A stretch of 64,000 nt of DNA, taken from assembly GCA_016839705.1 (NCBI GenBank), contig JAEOTR010000048.1:1-64000 (forward strand), written 5' to 3'. The translations under genes were made by a program, and so were the position numbers. The notes under the pieces were generated by a model that had not been told where the DNA came from, did no database searches, and was given only the letters and a program-made list of their open reading frames with translations. The DNA is from Promethearchaeota archaeon. GTDB taxonomy: Archaea > Asgardarchaeota > Lokiarchaeia > Sigyniarchaeales > SOKP01. Shown piece after piece: positions 5,900-46,065 of the stretch (positions are counted from its first letter, which is position 1; each line of letters opens with the position of its first letter).

Positions 5900-6352
5900 A
5901 TGAAAATTCCAGAGAGAATAGAGACAAATAGGTTAGTTTTAAGACCTTATTCTGAGGAGGATGTCAATGAGTTTTTGGATTCCTATAAAACTGCAAATCC
6001 TGGATTTAGTTTGGTAATTTCTAATAAAATAAAAGAAACTTATTTGGGAACTTGTGGGTTAAATCCAATTAAAGGCAGTAGGAGTGTAAGTTGCATTTAC
6101 GCTCTCTTACCAGAATTCAGAAGTAATGGATATGCAATCGAGGCCATGCTAAAACTAATAGAGTATGCTTTTTTAAAGTTAAAAATCCCGAAAATTATTG
6201 CATATATACAACCAGACAATACACGTGGTTGGAAAGTAGCAGAGAGAATAGGAATGAAATATATGGGGCATCTACAACATAATCATTTCACCCAAAAAAC
6301 CATGTTATTCACCATAAAAAAGGAAGAATACATAATGCAACGTTCATACTAA
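5900..6352 (+). CDS. GNAT N-acetyltransferase, RimJ/RimL-like
   Basis: IETNRLVLRP, FRSNGYAIEA, PDNTRGWKVAERIGM. ATG at 5900 is the likely start. Confidence 0.85.
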   Translation: MKIPERIETNRLVLRPYSEEDVNEFLDSYKTANPGFSLVISNKIKETYLGTCGLNPIKGSRSVSCIYALLPEFRSNGYAIEAMLKLIEYAFLKLKIPKIIAYIQPDNTRGWKVAERIGMKYMGHLQHNHFTQKTMLFTIKKEEYIMQRSY

Positions 6353-6356
6353 ATTT

Positions 6357-6575
6357 TCATAGAAAAGCCTCTTTTATGAATCTATTTTTTTTTTCTTGAG
6401 GTGGAGAGGTATTTTGAACTAGCAATATCTCTTGATTTTTCACTGAACCATTTATCTTAAGATAAGTCTCCCCATCGTTAAAATATTTAAATTTAAGATC
6501 TAATAATGGAATCCCATGAATGGAGGCTAAATTGACTCTTAATTCTGTTGATGAAGTGCCTGGTAATATTTTCAT
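6357..6575 (-). pseudogene. prs: N-terminal fragment of ribose-phosphate pyrophosphokinase
   Basis: GTSSTEL...FNDGETYLKINGSVKNQEILLVQ...PPQ matches the PRPP synthase N-terminus. Ends at 72 aa against a convergent gene. Confidence 0.75.
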
Positions 6576-6596
6576 CTTTTATTGTCATCCGTTTTA

Positions 6597-7169
6597 TCAA
6601 GGATATCCTATTGGAATAATATATAGAGGGACAAGATTAGTAGGGAGTCTCATCACTTTTTTTACTCCATCGTCTTGAAAAGCACCAATAGGTACAGAGA
6701 CTAAATCTAAAGCAATTGCTTCCAAATGGATATTTTGAGCACAGTGCCCTACTTCCATATACACATATCTTATCCCTCTTTCCCCGTATCTTTGGGTTGT
6801 CCTTGAGTAGTTCGCACAAATTAATATATTTAGATATGCTTCCTCAATAAATTTTTGATCCCAAGACTCTTTAGCTAATTTCTTACCTATATTTTCTTCA
6901 GTGATTAGTTTTAAAATATGTTTTTTGAAATCATAATGAAAATATCCTTTATCCTTTAGTGTAACATAAATCTCTAAAGGATATGTAGCACCAGCTGAAG
7001 GTACCATCCTTTTGTGACCTTTTTTCCCTTGAGCCGCCCACAAAATCTGGGAAATTTTTTCAATCTCAATTGCTTTATCTTGATACCTTCTAACACTTTC
7101 ACGTTCATAAATACATTCTTCAAGACTTTTCCTTCCTTCTAATATAGGTTTTGGGAGCTTTAATTCCAT
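6597..7169 (-). CDS. SagB/ThcOx-family nitroreductase-like protein
   Basis: SLEECIYERESVR, PSAGATYPLEIY, RYGERGIRYVYMEVGHCAQNIHL, IGAFQD. Confidence 0.9.
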   Translation of the reverse strand: MELKLPKPILEGRKSLEECIYERESVRRYQDKAIEIEKISQILWAAQGKKGHKRMVPSAGATYPLEIYVTLKDKGYFHYDFKKHILKLITEENIGKKLAKESWDQKFIEEAYLNILICANYSRTTQRYGERGIRYVYMEVGHCAQNIHLEAIALDLVSVPIGAFQDDGVKKVMRLPTNLVPLYIIPIGYP

Positions 7170-7765: not shown

Positions 7766-8512
7766 ATGTATAAACTAGTTCTTTTAAGGCATGGGGAAAG
7801 TATATGGAATAAGGAAAATAGATTCACCGGTTGGACTGATGTTGATCTTTCAGAGAAAGGTGTTCAGGAGGCAGAAGATGGAGCTAAGCAATTAAAAAAA
7901 GAAGGATTTACATTCGAAATTGCTTTCACGTCGGTTCTAAAAAGAGGGATAAGAACATTATGGATTGTATTAGATGAGATGGATTTAATGTGGATACCCG
8001 TACATCGTTCTTGGAGATTAAATGAAAGACATTATGGCGCTCTTCAAGGTTTATTTAAGGCAAAATTAGCTTCAGAAGTGGGAGAGGAACAAGTGCTTAT
8101 ATGGAGAAGAAGCTATGATATCCCTCCCCCTGCACTGAAAACAAGCGATCCAAGATATCCTGGTAATGATAATAGATATAAAGGTTTAACCGCAGATGAA
8201 ACTCCTCTTTCAGAATGTCTGAAAGACACTGTTGAAAGAGTATTACCTTATTGGCATGAAACTATTGTCCCTACTATAAAATCTGGAAAAAAAGTGCTCA
8301 TCTCTGCTCATGGGAATAGTTTACGTGCTCTTGTGAAATATCTTGACAATGTCCCTGAAGAAGAAATAATCAAATTAAACATCCCAACAGGAATACCGCT
8401 TATCTACGAGTTAGATGATGACATGAAACCACTTAATCATTATTACCTTGCCGATAGTGAAAAAGTGGAGGAGGCTATTAAAGCTGTGGCCGATCAAGGA
8501 AAAATAAAATAA
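7766..8512 (+). CDS. gpmA: 2,3-bisphosphoglycerate-dependent phosphoglycerate mutase
   Basis: [49 protein letters not shown]. Confidence 0.97.
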
Positions 8513-8614
8513 AGCTAATAAACTTCCTTATTACCTTAATGTTAGTGTATTTCAAAAAGAAAAGAACAATCCAAATTTAAACGAAAAAAAAAAAGATTTG
8601 AAAAATAAAGATTA

Positions 8615-8920
8615 CTACCATTTCATTCCTATCATTTCAAAGGAATCTTGAACTCCAATAAGTCCTTCTCCCTTCATAAAAACATTTTCGATTTGACTAA
8701 CGGGTAAAAAATATTTGTTAATTTCAATCTGTGCTTCTTCTAATTTTCCTCTTTCAGTATAAATTAGATGATATTGTTTCATACCATTTCTCCCATCTGG
8801 TGTATTAAAAACTCGCCATTTTGTCACATATGGGATTTCTCTAGGTTGCTGTAAATATAGTTTCGCAATATCTACTGATTTATGGGGAGGATACCATATA
8901 GTTATCATTAAAATTCCCAT
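8615..8920 (-). CDS. Hypothetical protein
   Basis: 101-aa ORF with GAGGTG upstream on the minus strand (RBS-like). Confidence 0.7.
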   Translation of the reverse strand: MGILMITIWYPPHKSVDIAKLYLQQPREIPYVTKWRVFNTPDGRNGMKQYHLIYTERGKLEEAQIEINKYFLPVSQIENVFMKGEGLIGVQDSFEMIGMKW

Positions 8921-9062
8921 GTTGATTTACACCTCTTATATTTATTTAAAATGGATTTAAAGGTAAGTTAATCCTTTAGTCAATTCTATTTAAAATTTTA
9001 CTTTTTTATCAAAAAAATCTCAGAAAATAATAAAAACAACAAAGATAATTTTTTAAGTCTGA

Positions 9063-9869
9063 ATGGTAAGGTTTTATACTATGGTAAAAAAATTATTAAT
9101 CGACAATCCTGTAGTTTCTAGAATTGTTTTTTATCCACGAAAAATTCCAGTCCCTGAAGAAACAGAACCAAATATTAAAGTTTTGAAGTTTCAAATTAAT
9201 AAAAACATCCTCATTGGAGGTTTATTCTATTTAAATAATCCAAATTATCCCACAATTCTATTATTCCATGGAAATGGAGAAATTGCCACCGATTATCAAT
9301 ATTTTATAGATTTTTTCTTTAAATGTGGCGTAAATTTAGCCGTTGTGGATTTTCGTGGATATGGATTTAGTTCAGGTGAACCCTATTACACAAGTTTAAT
9401 TATAGATGCCCTTCCTACATATAATGAATTTACTAAATGGATGAATCAGAATAGTATTAGTGATTCTGTATTTATTCTGGGGCGCTCACTGGGAAGTATC
9501 TGCGTATCTGAAATTGGTTCACACAATCCTGAGAGTTTACGTGGAATAATCTTTGAAAGTGGGTTTGCAAGTATATACGATTTGATGTCAAGGTTATTTA
9601 GAGTAACAGGTTCTCAAATAACGCCAGAATTATTAAGCGAATATTCTAACGATACAAGGATAAGAAAATTCAAAAAACCTACTTTAGTTATTCACGGAAC
9701 TAATGATTTCATTATTCCCTATCATCAAGGAGAATTAATATTTGAAAATATACCTGAGGAAGTTGAGAAGAAACTAGTCTTAATCGAAGGTGCAGGTCAT
9801 AATAATATATTCTCTTTCGAAGAAGAATATACAACTCCGCTGAAAGATTTCATTAATCTATATAAATAG
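9063..9869 (+). CDS. Alpha/beta hydrolase (ABHD13/ABHD17-like)
   Basis: LLFHGNGE, DFRGYGFSSG, GRSLG nucleophile, VIHGTNDFII, GAGHNN. Confidence 0.9.
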   Translation: MVRFYTMVKKLLIDNPVVSRIVFYPRKIPVPEETEPNIKVLKFQINKNILIGGLFYLNNPNYPTILLFHGNGEIATDYQYFIDFFFKCGVNLAVVDFRGYGFSSGEPYYTSLIIDALPTYNEFTKWMNQNSISDSVFILGRSLGSICVSEIGSHNPESLRGIIFESGFASIYDLMSRLFRVTGSQITPELLSEYSNDTRIRKFKKPTLVIHGTNDFIIPYHQGELIFENIPEEVEKKLVLIEGAGHNNIFSFEEEYTTPLKDFINLYK

Positions 9870-40264: not shown

Positions 40265-40392
40265 AAATATTTCATTCGAGCGAATAATATACCAATATAG
40301 TAATTTGGATATTTTTTCTTTAATAACAAACAGAAATTTATTTATCTGTTATAATTTATTATTTGAATTTCGGAACATATCATACAGTCATT

Positions 40393-42543
40393 ATGTCAAC
40401 ATTAATAATAGCTGAGAAAAATAAAGCAGCAGAGGCTATAGCAAAAGCAATTGGGACAGTTAAAGTAATAAATAAAACCAAATCGTTAAAGATCTACTCA
40501 ATTCCATCAAAAAATATATATGTAGTTCCGTTACGTGGTCATCTTCTCGAATATAGAAATACGGATGCGTATAAAAGTTGGACAAAATCAAATCCTAGAG
40601 AAATTATCACTAATTCTAATGCAATTGAAAAAGTCCCTGTAAGTTATGCACCTCCCTATATTAGTGCTTTAAAAGAATATTCTAAAATTTCGGATCATTG
40701 CATTATTGGAACTGATGCTGACATTGAAGGATGTAACATTGGGTTTTTTGACGCTCTCCCTTATGTTAAGAACATAAACCCAAATATAAAAATCTCACAA
40801 ATGTGGCTTAGTTCACTCCAACCTAACGAAATTAACACTAAATTCAAAAATTTAATAACCCCAAAATACAGTTGGGGTGAATCAGGTGAGGCAAGAGCAA
40901 TTATTGATGCGATTATTGGTTTTTCTGCTACTAGAGAAGTCACCAATACTCTTCGTCTTTTATTAAATAAATTTGGCGTTAAGTTTACTTCAATTGGTAG
41001 AGTTCAGACCAGTCTTCTCTATTTAATCTATTTGAAAGAAAAAGATACCGAGAACTTTGTCCCAGAACTCTATTTTTTAATAGATGCGGTTTTACATCAT
41101 CAAAATGGGACATTTAAAGCACATCATTTATCAAATCCTTTTAAACATAATTTTGAATCCAAGGCACGACAAATTTTTCAAAAAATTCAAAAGGAAAAAA
41201 TTGCTAAAGTTGTGGATATATCTAAAAAACCTAGAAAAAGAAAACCACCGAGTCCTTTAAATACGTCAAAAGCACTAATCCTTCTGACTAAAAATTTAAA
41301 AATTCCCGCAAATTTTGCCTTGAAAACTATGAATGCGTTATACCTTAATAAAATAATATCCTACCCTCGGACAGATAGTGATGTCTACACACCAGAATTC
41401 AATCATACAGATATTTTAGATAAATTCACATCTCATTCTCAATTTGGCTCATATAGTATTAGTTTAATTAGAAATAAGAGAAAAACACCCACTAAGGGAA
41501 AAAAAGATGCAGGGGACCATCCACCAATTACTCCTCTTGAGAGTGTAGAAGAAAATAGTACAAAATTTGAAAATGAATTACAGAAAAAAGTATATAATCT
41601 ACTTGCACGACATTACTTAGCCTTATTTGGTGAAGACGCAACTGAGTCTACTCAAGTTTTAAATCTTCTTATTAAGGATGAAGCTTTTAAAGCTCAGCGA
41701 GTTTCATTAATCATAAAAGGATTTTTAGAAATTGCTCCGTTTCTCACACCCAAATATGAAGAAGAAATACAAATTTCGAGAAATGAATTACCAATAGAAG
41801 AAATTACCTTCAACCAAAAAGAAACCACACCACCCCCAAGATTCAATGATACATCCTTACTAAAATTGATGGAAAAAAATCATCTTGGAACAAAATCCAC
41901 ACGACCTCAAATAATTTACCTATTACAAAAGCGACAAGTGATAAAAAGAGTTAAATATCAATATTTAATAACAGATTTGGGTAAATTTATTATCGAAAGT
42001 TTGATTTCAATATGGTTACCCTTCCTTAAACCTGATTTTACAAAAATGATTGAAGAAAAGCTCGAAGATATTAAAGAAATGAGAGAAAAAATGCACAACG
42101 TTGTGGATGAAATAAGAATAGAGTTTTTGAAACTATTCGACAAGTTTCTAGCCAAAAAACAAGAGTTAACTTCGAAAGCTAATAATTATAAAATGAACTT
42201 CACGATACCTCTGACATCAACCAATTGTCCATTTTGCCATACTAACCCTATGAAATTTATTAATTTAAAAGCTAAAAGATTTCTAGTGTGCTCAGATGAA
42301 AGTTGTAAAAAATTTTTATCATTACCCAAGAAAGGAAAATTAGAATTATTAGATTCTGTTTGCTCGATTTGTAATTTCAATATTTTTAAAATATCCCTTC
42401 AGAAAAATCAAAAATTTTATACCTATTATCTGTGCCCTAAATGTTGGAATGATGGGTTTCAAGATAATCCTGAAAAAGGAAAAGGTTTCTGTTCTAACTG
42501 TAAAGACTTCAAAATTTCTAAAGATCAATGTATAAAAAAGTAA
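40393..42543 (+). CDS. topA: Type IA DNA topoisomerase (Topo III-like) with C-terminal zinc fingers
   Basis: IIAEK, TDADIEG, SIGRVQT, catalytic SYPRTDS, DHPPITP, and a Cys-rich tail. Confidence 0.93.
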   Translation: MSTLIIAEKNKAAEAIAKAIGTVKVINKTKSLKIYSIPSKNIYVVPLRGHLLEYRNTDAYKSWTKSNPREIITNSNAIEKVPVSYAPPYISALKEYSKISDHCIIGTDADIEGCNIGFFDALPYVKNINPNIKISQMWLSSLQPNEINTKFKNLITPKYSWGESGEARAIIDAIIGFSATREVTNTLRLLLNKFGVKFTSIGRVQTSLLYLIYLKEKDTENFVPELYFLIDAVLHHQNGTFKAHHLSNPFKHNFESKARQIFQKIQKEKIAKVVDISKKPRKRKPPSPLNTSKALILLTKNLKIPANFALKTMNALYLNKIISYPRTDSDVYTPEFNHTDILDKFTSHSQFGSYSISLIRNKRKTPTKGKKDAGDHPPITPLESVEENSTKFENELQKKVYNLLARHYLALFGEDATESTQVLNLLIKDEAFKAQRVSLIIKGFLEIAPFLTPKYEEEIQISRNELPIEEITFNQKETTPPPRFNDTSLLKLMEKNHLGTKSTRPQIIYLLQKRQVIKRVKYQYLITDLGKFIIESLISIWLPFLKPDFTKMIEEKLEDIKEMREKMHNVVDEIRIEFLKLFDKFLAKKQELTSKANNYKMNFTIPLTSTNCPFCHTNPMKFINLKAKRFLVCSDESCKKFLSLPKKGKLELLDSVCSICNFNIFKISLQKNQKFYTYYLCPKCWNDGFQDNPEKGKGFCSNCKDFKISKDQCIKK

Positions 42544-42589: not shown

Positions 42590-42928
42590 CTAAAAGAATT
42601 TCTTAACATCAAACCGATAAGCTGCTCTTGTTAAGCCAACATAATTGTCCGTAATCTTGTAAAACAGTTTTTCATTAACAAGTTTTTTCTGTAAATAGTT
42701 ATTTTTAATCAAATGATTTAAAGAATTAATCATGGTTCCTAACGTAACCGCGCCAACAAATCCATGTTGTTTCTTGGTAACCCTAATTAATTCAAGTTCA
42801 GAATGCCATTGTCCATCAAGAAGAGCCCTTAAAATATCATTCTTAATAGGGGTTTTTATATCTTTAATTTTATTGAACAAAACTGAATATATAGGATTAT
42901 AATATCTTTCCTGCTCTTTTTCTTCCAT
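42590..42928 (-). CDS. Winged-helix DNA-binding-like protein
   Basis: ILRALLDGQWHSELELIR...GAVTLGTMINSL...LQKKLVNEKLFYKI. Confidence 0.65.
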   Translation of the reverse strand: MEEKEQERYYNPIYSVLFNKIKDIKTPIKNDILRALLDGQWHSELELIRVTKKQHGFVGAVTLGTMINSLNHLIKNNYLQKKLVNEKLFYKITDNYVGLTRAAYRFDVKKFF

Positions 42929-43119: not shown

Positions 43120-44241
43120 CTAAAGTAAATTAGGTGGAATCCCCTCATCAAAATATTTTACACGGGATATCCAGTTTTCTGAAAATTCCGGGATCTTTGC
43201 TAATATAGAACCTCCAATCCATACAGAAAAAGTTCTCTCTTGAGGAGCAATAATTCTTACGCTCTGGTTTTTTTTCTTCCTCCTGGCTAATTCAAGTTCT
43301 AATTCCTGATACATTCTTGATTTTAAATTAGGAAACATTGAAGAACCACCACTTAAAAAAATATTATTTAATAATTCTGGTCGAATATCCAAATCACAAG
43401 CTTCTATTACATCCAAAATTGCCACCGGTAGGGAATCCTCCTCTAATTCAGGAGATGGATTAAATAAAAGCTCTGGAACTATAAACCGTTCATTATGCAA
43501 TGAGATTGTTGAACCATCTGGTAAAGAATAGTCTTTATTATACTGTTCACTTCTTTTCAAATCCTCTTTATAATCTAAAGAAACAAAACAAGCTTTTTCT
43601 TTTAAAACTCTTACTAATTCTCTTCGAATAGAAGAATCAACCGACCAGCCAATAGATTCCAAGATTTTTTCCATATAATGAGTCAGTACCCTACCCCCAA
43701 TTTCTAGAATTCTTACCGCATGATTTAATTTATATCCTTCATAAATGGGTACAATTCTGGTATTGCTATCTCCAATTTCAATAATTAAACCTGTTTGAAA
43801 TCCCCCTGAATATAAAGTAAGCATCGAATCTAAAACAGGATAAAAATTCATACACTGAAGTCTTCCTAAAAAAAGTTCAAAAATTTTTTCCAAATCCTTA
43901 CGGGGGAATAAGGGATGGACGGCTAGTAGGACATTAACTAGAGAGGGATCAACTCTTAAATTATAGAAAATATAATCCACAATGTTTTCAAAATGCTTCC
44001 AATCAATAATAATCCCTTTTTCTATTGGATGAAAAATCTTATAAAGGCCAATAGATTGGATTTCATCTCCTACATAAAGTTCATCTTCTCGACTTTTAGC
44101 AGTTGAATAATCAATGCTTACACTTTGATATTTCGGTTTCCCAACCATCGTTAAGAAAACTTGAGCTGGAGAATCCTCTCCTGCAAATCCTATTTTAGTA
44201 GAAAATTGGCCAATATCAATAACAACAGTAAGATTTACCAT
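43120..44241 (-). CDS. Actin-related protein (divergent Asgard actin paralogue)
   Basis: VVIDIG..STKIGFAGEDSP, YVGDE, IVPIYEGY, LKEKACFV, YSLPDG, ERFIVPELLF, LSGGSSMFP, SVWIGGSILA. Confidence 0.93.
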   Translation of the reverse strand: MVNLTVVIDIGQFSTKIGFAGEDSPAQVFLTMVGKPKYQSVSIDYSTAKSREDELYVGDEIQSIGLYKIFHPIEKGIIIDWKHFENIVDYIFYNLRVDPSLVNVLLAVHPLFPRKDLEKIFELFLGRLQCMNFYPVLDSMLTLYSGGFQTGLIIEIGDSNTRIVPIYEGYKLNHAVRILEIGGRVLTHYMEKILESIGWSVDSSIRRELVRVLKEKACFVSLDYKEDLKRSEQYNKDYSLPDGSTISLHNERFIVPELLFNPSPELEEDSLPVAILDVIEACDLDIRPELLNNIFLSGGSSMFPNLKSRMYQELELELARRKKKNQSVRIIAPQERTFSVWIGGSILAKIPEFSENWISRVKYFDEGIPPNLL

Positions 44242-44571: not shown

Positions 44572-45132
44572 GTGATTTTAAGTATGGAAAAAAGATACAT
44601 ACCTCTTTTTATAATGCTGGGATTTATTATCATTCTGATTATAACCGCATTTGTCGCTGCTGTTTTTGGCGTTCCGATCATAGCATTAGATCAGTCAGAA
44701 ATCTCGATCGCATCATTTGATTATTGGTCATTAGGACATTTCCTATGGGGAGTTGGACTTTTCGTTATATTCTTCACATTTGGTTGGATTATCAAAAATT
44801 TAACGGATAGCCCAAAAGATCCTATTAATGAACCAGAGGTTAGAAGCTTCATCATATATTGGATAATTATTCTTATTATTGCGGGTCTTTGGGAAGTTGT
44901 TGAAAATACAATTCTTCATATGGTTAGTATCAAAGTTAAATTCGACAGTGCGGCAAATATAATAACTGATATAATTACATGGGGCATTGGTGGATGTGTG
45001 AGTTGGTATATGACAGATCTAATGTTTTTAAGCGACAAATATCTCAGAGCTTATTACCTCTATGGATTTATGTGCCTCGCAATGGGTATAATCATATTCG
45101 TATTCTTTGGTTTTGTTACAACTAATTACTAA
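44572..45132 (+). CDS. Membrane protein, DUF2585-like putative metal-binding
   Basis: DYWSLGHF, WEVVEN and DSAANIITD in TM context. Confidence 0.6.
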   Translation: MILSMEKRYIPLFIMLGFIIILIITAFVAAVFGVPIIALDQSEISIASFDYWSLGHFLWGVGLFVIFFTFGWIIKNLTDSPKDPINEPEVRSFIIYWIIILIIAGLWEVVENTILHMVSIKVKFDSAANIITDIITWGIGGCVSWYMTDLMFLSDKYLRAYYLYGFMCLAMGIIIFVFFGFVTTNY

Positions 45133-45333: not shown

Positions 45334-46065
45334 TTATTCTCCGCGCATAATCTTTTTCAAACGGTTAAGCTCATCGAGCATCTCATCACGAAGAGAGCTT
45401 AAACCACCCCCCGTTTGAGGGGCTGCTGCTGCCGGAGGTGCTCCAGGTGTTTGAGGTGGACTAGCTGGAGGTGTGGCTCGTGGACCACTTGGAGGTGCGG
45501 CTGGTGGACCACTTGGTCTTTTCGCGAACGCAGGAGTTGCTGTTGGAGGTATAGGTGGTGCACCAGAGCTTGGAGCTTTAGGTGGTGCACCAGAGCTTGG
45601 AGCTTTAGGTGGTCCCGATGGAGGTAATTTTGGAGCAGGTGGTAGACTGCCGGCTTTCGGTGGGCCGCTAGGCGGTGCACTCGGTGGCGCACTAGGAGGC
45701 CCTGCAGGAGCCTTAGGCGGGCCACCACTAGTAGGAGGTACTGGTGCTGCGGTTAGTGATGCTGGTGCTGTTGTTGGTGCTGCTTGGCTTTCAGCACCCC
45801 CACTTAAAAGAGAAAACAAAGTACTAGCTGCTGCAGTTTTGGCGGTCCCCGATGATGAGGCAACAATCTTTTTCGAGGAAGTACTAACAGTTTGGACGTC
45901 TTCTCCAACAGTAATTTCCTTTAAGTCTTTTTGGGCTTTTGATAATGACTTGATAAAATCATTAATTCCTTTAACTGTTTCTCCTAAGTCATCAGCGAGG
46001 CTAGTTAAGCCTTTTTTCATAAAATTAATAACACGTTCGATCTTTTTTTGTTCTTTTGAAACCAC
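45334..46065 (-). CDS. Proline-rich protein with N-terminal coiled coil and C-terminal WH2/EVH2-like amphipathic helix
   Basis: GTG start; heptad-like aa 5-52; P/A/S/G-rich aa ~97-216; ends GGGLSSLRDEMLDELNRLKKIMRGE. Confidence 0.75.
   Translation of the reverse strand: MVSKEQKKIERVINFMKKGLTSLADDLGETVKGINDFIKSLSKAQKDLKEITVGEDVQTVSTSSKKIVASSSGTAKTAAASTLFSLLSGGAESQAAPTTAPASLTAAPVPPTSGGPPKAPAGPPSAPPSAPPSGPPKAGSLPPAPKLPPSGPPKAPSSGAPPKAPSSGAPPIPPTATPAFAKRPSGPPAAPPSGPRATPPASPPQTPGAPPAAAAPQTGGGLSSLRDEMLDELNRLKKIMRGE
45554..45613. repeat. Perfect 27-bp tandem duplication (encodes KAPSSGAPP twice)
   Basis: GGTGGTGCACCAGAGCTTGGAGCTTTA at 45554-45580 and 45581-45607, followed by GGTGGT. Confidence 0.95.

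Follow-up and report, generated by a model that had tools for sequence, protein, structure and literature searches.

An order-restricted actin-related protein of a Lokiarchaeial genome with a replaced catalytic site, a candidate non-polymerising scaffold

Introduction

Does the actin-family gene at positions 43,120 to 44,241 of this 64,000-nucleotide stretch of Promethearchaeota DNA (here called the window) encode a filament-forming actin, or an actin-related protein (ARP) with some other role? An earlier note, made from the sequence alone, read it as an ARP-like protein (capping, nucleating or scaffolding) and not as the filament-forming Lokiactin, on the strength of substitutions in the ATPase site and the hydrophobic plug. 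The functions of Asgard ARPs were stated to be unknown in 2020 (PMC7444086), and our literature searches turned up no functional or residue-level study of the clade to which this protein belongs. We describe here its relatives, its residue-level profile, its gene neighbourhood and a cross-check against published proteomic data; the profile and the cross-check appear to be new for this clade.

Results and Discussion

A further member of a catalogued ARP clade

43120..44241, (-) strand: actin-related protein, 373 aa, intact open reading frame; orthologue of UYP44126.1 and QEE17026.1

The 373-aa protein belongs to the actin family (PF00022; 298 bits against a Pfam cut-off of 27, E 9e-89), and among PDB sequences it is matched best by an Asgard actin and by yeast actin. 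AlphaFold2, run on an alignment of 120 rows, gives a model with a pLDDT of 93 that matches actin with a Foldseek TM of about 0.9. The genome carries three actin-family genes, the other two being a canonical Lokiactin (contig C32) and an ARP of 506 aa that carries a zinc-ribbon insert (contig C27). Crenactin and syringactin were considered as identities for the 373-aa protein and lie far below the cut-offs, and no actin match was found among phage records.

Full-length orthologues are present in 33 of the 36 genomes of the genus at 82-93% identity, in other genera of the same family (f1) at 62-80%, and in a second family (f2) at 47-58%, with one partial copy in a third (f3). Among the genomes sampled the ARP is thus confined to three families of a single order. 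No orthologue was found in four f4 genomes, all incomplete, or in five genomes representing other orders within the class. Nor did any turn up among 123 genomes sampled from other classes, in which the best matches score at the Lokiactin level. Pairwise dN/dS within the genus has a median of 0.057 (28 orthologues), showing that the gene is maintained under purifying selection; this, together with the full-length orthologues, rules out a pseudogene or a sequencing artefact.

One f2 orthologue contains both of the published RT-qPCR primers for UYP44126.1; exact look-up identifies it as UYP44126.1 of Ca. Lokiarchaeum ossiferum, and another orthologue as QEE17026.1 of Promethearchaeum syntrophicum. 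The former is one of three L. ossiferum ARPs in PMC9834061, and QEE17026 serves as a representative of an 'asgardactin' clade in 10.1101/2020.06.16.150565. The 373-aa gene is a further member of this already catalogued Asgard ARP clade.

Position outside the Lokiactins

The trees covered Asgard actins and ARPs and, among the ARPs of eukaryotes, Arp1 and Arp2. The ARP clade, with UYP44126.1 and QEE17026.1, is monophyletic with an SH-aLRT of 100 and lies outside Lokiactin in three trees, on a long stem; with a separate canonical Lokiactin on contig C32, the claim that this gene is not Lokiactin is borne out. The phylogenetic check that the earlier note had called for gives a less decisive answer on origin: the maximum-likelihood tree places the clade outside Lokiactin, but forcing it together with the actins of its own order costs 7.5 log-likelihood units and is not rejected (AU p 0.095). 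Given the narrow range of the ARP, a Lokiactin duplication inside the order followed by fast change is a plausible origin, and the clade suggests that specialisation of an actin into an ARP occurred more than once. Orthology with Arp2 (AU p 0.015, with one Arp2 sequence) and with Arp1 (AU p 0.006) is rejected. The zinc-ribbon ARP appears as sister to the clade with 82% support, which is weak and may reflect long-branch attraction.

Several genomes of the genus carry extra actin paralogues (loci L078, L079 and L089; L080 and L081), comprising a recent Lokiactin duplicate with its catalytic residues intact and a divergent 371-aa copy. Actin duplication is recurrent in this order.

Replacement of the catalytic residues

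44194..44217, (-) strand: P1 loop, residues 9-16; N12I, S14Q and G15F, with D11, G13 and K18 retained
44074..44136, (-) strand: D-loop region (actin 38-53), 21 residues; Lokiactin M44 and V47 lost, length and sequence variable in the clade
44017..44019, (-) strand: K75, corresponding to the sensor residue H73; most orthologues have K or N here
43903..43923, (-) strand: active-site Pro-rich loop (actin 106-112); E107V, A108H and N111F
43828..43830, (-) strand: D138, at catalytic position Q137; D in f1, mostly G in f2, never Q
43798..43800, (-) strand: F148, at position R147; fixed in the clade, an extra hydrophobic residue in the barbed-end cleft
43756..43779, (-) strand: P2 loop to R162; D154E, G158S and H161R
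43435..43464, (-) strand: hydrophobic-plug region; one residue short and acidic, a trait of f1 only
43264..43287, (-) strand: alphaK-beta15 loop, enlarged by a 4-residue insert that the whole clade shares and that is basic in f1

Substitutions were called by alignment to yeast actin and one conventional eukaryotic actin. The active-site replacements that had been read by eye are all present: DNGSG becomes DIGQF (S14Q and G15F, with N12I), DSGDG becomes EIGDS (D154E, S155I and G158S), and H73K, Q137D and H161R are as described. Further changes are E107V, A108H, N111F, R147F, V159N, R177I and K336T, all but R147F located in the active site, and the protein is without the C-terminal residues 372-375 of actin.

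A residue table of 135 ARP orthologues and 26 Lokiactins extends this pattern to the clade. H161R and R147F are invariant in the 135 orthologues, Q137 and E107 are replaced in every one, nearly all have Q or E in place of S14 and F or Y in place of G15, and N12 and G158 are replaced across the clade. Position A108 is conserved as H or N, and D157 is A in f2. Residues D11, G13, K18, G156, G182, R210, K213, E214, G301 and G302 are kept. The median dN/dS and the presence of H161R in all of the aligned orthologues indicate that the substitutions are products of neither chance nor decay. The shared derived features by which we defined the clade in this analysis (H161R, R147F and the 4-residue insert) are all present in the window's protein.

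Several features in the earlier note describe this protein better than they describe its clade. The aspartate at position 137 is a trait of this protein and of f1, the position being G in two thirds of the f2 orthologues. The D-loop region is indeed lengthened here (21 residues, where Lokiactin has 18 and eukaryotic actin 16), but it ranges from 15 to 22 residues among the orthologues and so is not long throughout, whereas its length is fixed in Lokiactin. The basic insert corresponds to four extra residues in the alphaK-beta15 loop, on subdomain 3 (SD3), which are common to the whole clade but basic only in f1. The plug, read as FIGM changed to PELE, is altered, although it properly reads P-E-L, with one residue deleted, and the final E is E270; it is short and acidic in f1, but full length (11 residues) and hydrophobic in f2. 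Both the plug change and S155I are real with respect to conventional actin, but Lokiactin is the proper baseline, and its plug is already V/A-I-G-K/L and residue 155 is I in the Lokiactin copy of this same genome.

Conserved and drifting surfaces

For the adenine pocket, barbed-end cleft, lateral contacts, plug and D-loop we used lists of sites taken to represent these surfaces in actin structures. The ARP consensus agrees with Lokiactin at nine of 11 adenine-pocket sites, at seven of 18 phosphate and catalytic sites, and at eight of 16 cleft residues. In a balanced sample of the clade, the whole protein has a mean pair identity of 0.57; the adenine pocket (0.76), the barbed-end cleft (0.75) and the remodelled phosphate and active-site residues (0.69) exceed this value, and the lateral contacts (0.42), the plug (0.33) and the D-loop (0.21) fall below it. 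Residues 61-64 of SD2 (0.77) and the SD4 face (0.60) are at or above the clade average, and the contact motifs P243-D244, D286-D288-R290 and 61-64 are retained.

Gene neighbourhood

45334..46065, (-) strand: proline-rich protein, 243 aa; upstream of the ARP and within 2 kb of it in f1 only, a candidate partner
44572-45132, (+) strand: multi-pass membrane protein, between the proline-rich gene and the ARP; absent there in the other loci examined
42590..42928, (-) strand: winged-helix (ArsR-like) protein, 112 aa; directly downstream of the ARP in nearly all f1 loci

The proline-rich protein has helices at its N-terminus, tracts of proline and, at its C-terminus, an almost invariant amphipathic helix that ends in LKKI; its gene is single-copy across the order (f1-f4). 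In all 50 f1 genomes with both genes on one contig, it lies upstream of the ARP on the same strand and less than 2 kb away; the gap is below 500 bp in 22 of these, and in many others a PIG-L deacetylase gene lies between. In four of four f2 genomes a distance of 43-272 kb separates the two genes, and the proline-rich protein is present in f4, where the ARP was not found, so the f1 linkage may be inherited gene order, related genomes not being independent observations. The C-terminal helix exceeds the ARP in conservation and is present even where no ARP was found, and its target may therefore be Lokiactin or the proline-rich protein itself.

No family match to the proline-rich protein was found in Pfam, NCBIfam or PDB. 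In 28 members there was no Pfam match to WH2 at E 10, and no WH2 structure was matched; the linker preceding LKK is also shorter than in the WH2 consensus. The winged-helix gene is convergent with a type IA topoisomerase gene (40363-42543). In most f2 genomes the ARP gene is immediately preceded, in the same orientation, by a gene for a Ras-family small GTPase (6109-6702 of locus L036, 7226-7795 of locus L041). A sigma-70 promoter scan, with a motif model unsuited to archaea, gave hits at chance level only, and RNA runs, which offered small-share contigs only and are uninformative, placed a few short pieces on the proline-rich gene but not on that of the ARP.

In the L. ossiferum genome (G055), loci L114-L115 (contig C1, from about 752843 to beyond 780000) hold a single open reading frame that exceeds 9,000 codons.

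Abundance and interaction data

Transcripts of Lokiactin are severalfold the highest of the four homologues in L. ossiferum (PMC9834061). The supplement of 10.1101/2025.11.30.690169 gives tag 00420 a mass of 50.83 kDa and tag 00421 one of 10.01 kDa, matching the open reading frames two and three places from the L. ossiferum ARP (50.86 and 10.02 kDa), and this match of two neighbours identifies the ARP as GNAMCCOK_00418. This tag is not among the proteome entries listed, of which the lowest has a mean log2 intensity of 14.41 and Lokiactin 21.69; by these listed entries the ARP is at least about 150-fold below Lokiactin, or undetected. Nor is it among the Lokiactin co-immunoprecipitation (co-IP) entries listed, which extend from the top ratio to -1.06, a negative that is weakened by low abundance. 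The L. ossiferum proline-rich protein has tag 00649 or 00650, neither of which is among the co-IP entries listed. That motility study (10.1101/2025.11.30.690169; 2026) reports a profilin, five gelsolins and an ARF GTPase enriched with Lokiactin, and as Lokiactin partners it names only gelsolins, profilins and an ARF GTPase, and no ARP.

GNAMCCOK_00420 (8071-9429 of locus L041), a 452-aa protein of no known family encoded divergently from the GTPase-ARP pair in f2, shows a weak enrichment with Lokiactin in the co-IP data (log2 1.01, adjusted P 0.047). Two tandem homologues of it are present on contig C1 of the window's genome.

Predicted function and its alternatives

The ARP-like, non-filament reading of the gene fits both the residue pattern and the low abundance. 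From the sequence comparisons we lean, with some reserve, towards the view that the ARP is a lineage-specific, nucleotide-binding, hydrolysis-impaired and non-polymerising low-copy scaffold that holds a helical partner in its barbed-end cleft. Because the adenine and ribose pocket and D11, G13 and K18 are kept, it would still hold an adenine nucleotide as a structural cofactor. With Q137, H161, E107, S14, G15, H73 and G158 all replaced, it is unlikely to run the polymerisation-triggered ATPase of actin, in which Q137, H161 and the 108-109 loop set up hydrolysis on filament flattening (PMC10062479) and S14 and H73 pass the nucleotide state to the D-loop (PMC3510490). Since there is free drift in the D-loop, the plug and the lateral contacts, and the insert lies on the SD3 contact face, it presumably does not build filaments of the Lokiactin type. 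Its working surface would be the remodelled cleft between SD1 and SD3, most likely holding the amphipathic helix of a partner, for which the candidates are the neighbouring proline-rich protein and the order's zinc-ribbon ARP. A dedicated helical partner is likelier than the Lokiactin D-loop, because the cleft is the best-kept outer surface and yet shares only half of its sites with Lokiactin.

Arp4 binds ATP and does not hydrolyse it, and neither Arp4 nor Arp8 polymerises, owing to insertions at filament contacts (PMC3510490). Residue replacement may nonetheless fall short of proof of a dead site, judging by Arp8, which retains low ATPase with Q137E, H161S and H73R (PMC3510490), and by filaments of Q137A actin, which retain low activity (PMC10062479). 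The conserved new residues of the active site could likewise mark a rewired one, and the conservation of SD2 61-64 and SD4 may mean that some oligomer contact persists.

Taken further, the first of these points gives an active ATPase switch, triggered by a partner, with R161 as an arginine finger and an acidic residue 137 or some other residue activating water. The invariance of H161R, the conservation of S14Q/E, A108H/N, D11 and K18, and the precedent of Arp8 favour such a switch, but G15F/Y puts a bulky side chain in the phosphate loop, and with G at 137 in much of f2, D157A in f2 and E107 lost the clade has no shared catalytic base; we think it quite improbable. Persisting contacts would instead allow a short or static polymer of the ARP itself, or a minor subunit co-polymerising into Lokiactin filaments. 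That is very unlikely in our estimation given the variable D-loop length, the clade-wide SD3 insert, the absence of the ARP from the co-IP entries listed and its very low level, even though the actin-like fold, the retained contact motifs and the full-length f2 plug speak for it.

A pointed-end cap or nucleation seed for Lokiactin is unlikely too, although likelier than a polymer or a rewired ATPase. The cleft of the ARP would take the D-loop of Lokiactin and its own degenerate D-loop would stop further growth, possibly with the zinc-ribbon ARP and the proline-rich protein in a separately evolved Arp2/3-and-NPF-like system. This would account for a conserved cleft beside a free D-loop, a low abundance would suit a seed, and the consistent f1 linkage to the proline-rich gene, the almost invariant helix of its product across the order, and the P1 change and insertion site common to both ARPs all point the same way. 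Set against these are the missing co-IP enrichment among the entries listed, a cleft that departs from Lokiactin at half of its sites, the loss of the F375 region and an insert on the docking face. The linkage is lost in f2 and the proline-rich gene occurs in f4 where no ARP was found; neither Pfam nor PDB matches the helix of its product to WH2, and the tree tests reject a grouping of the ARP with Arp2 or Arp1. That all three proteins form a filament-end module nucleating or capping Lokiactin independently of Arp2/3 and WASP is a long shot; if true, this would give Asgard archaea their first actin nucleator and provide the first polyproline-plus-helix activator from beyond the eukaryotes.

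The scaffold reading turns a catalogued gene into testable predictions in two cultured hosts: a bound nucleotide, little or no hydrolysis, no filaments, and a partner in the barbed-end cleft.

Comparison with known systems

The closest known relatives, UYP44126.1 and QEE17026.1, are 50-51% identical to the ARP and share the same P1 and P2 remodelling, H161R, R147F and the 4-residue insert. The f1 proteins differ from them by Q137D, by a plug that is acidic and shorter, by a longer D-loop and by the basic character of the insert. Gene context differs too, the f1 genes lying beside the proline-rich and winged-helix genes and the f2 copies beside a small GTPase. Lokiactin shares with the ARP the actin fold, Asgard-type motifs and an intact adenine pocket, at 41-46% identity (41% for the copy in the same genome). 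However, a Lokiactin would be expected to sit on a short branch of the pan-Asgard Lokiactin clade and to be more than 70% identical to other Lokiactins, and the ARP shows neither trait; G15, H73, E107, Q137, G158 and H161 are present in 100% of the 26 Lokiactins and all replaced in the ARP. Lokiactin is also highly abundant with a fixed D-loop, whereas the ARP is low or undetected in L. ossiferum by the entries listed and has a D-loop that varies across its clade.

Among actin paralogues of eukaryotes, Arp2 and Arp1 act at filament ends or in short filaments, and Arp2 keeps Q137, H161 and G15, all three of which are replaced in the ARP. Within the order, the zinc-ribbon ARP (946-2466 of locus L003, contig C27, 506 aa; UYP44711-like by genome position) has N12I and, in most copies, E or Q at S14; Q137 and H161 are also replaced, and its insert lies in the same alphaK-beta15 loop. 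This insert carries zinc ribbons and spans 99-166 residues across copies from f1-f4, that of the present genome being a double zinc ribbon of 129 residues; the zinc-ribbon ARP is likewise confined to the order in the genomes sampled and adjacent in the tree. As functional analogues we would point to Arp4 and Arp8, in which the nucleotide is kept, catalytic residues are replaced, filament contacts are changed and a target-binding cleft is conserved (PMC3510490). The ARP is without their large insertions, and the proposed likeness is one of function; by analogy, the ARP would hold the helix of its partner much as Arp4 and Arp8 hold the HSA helix.
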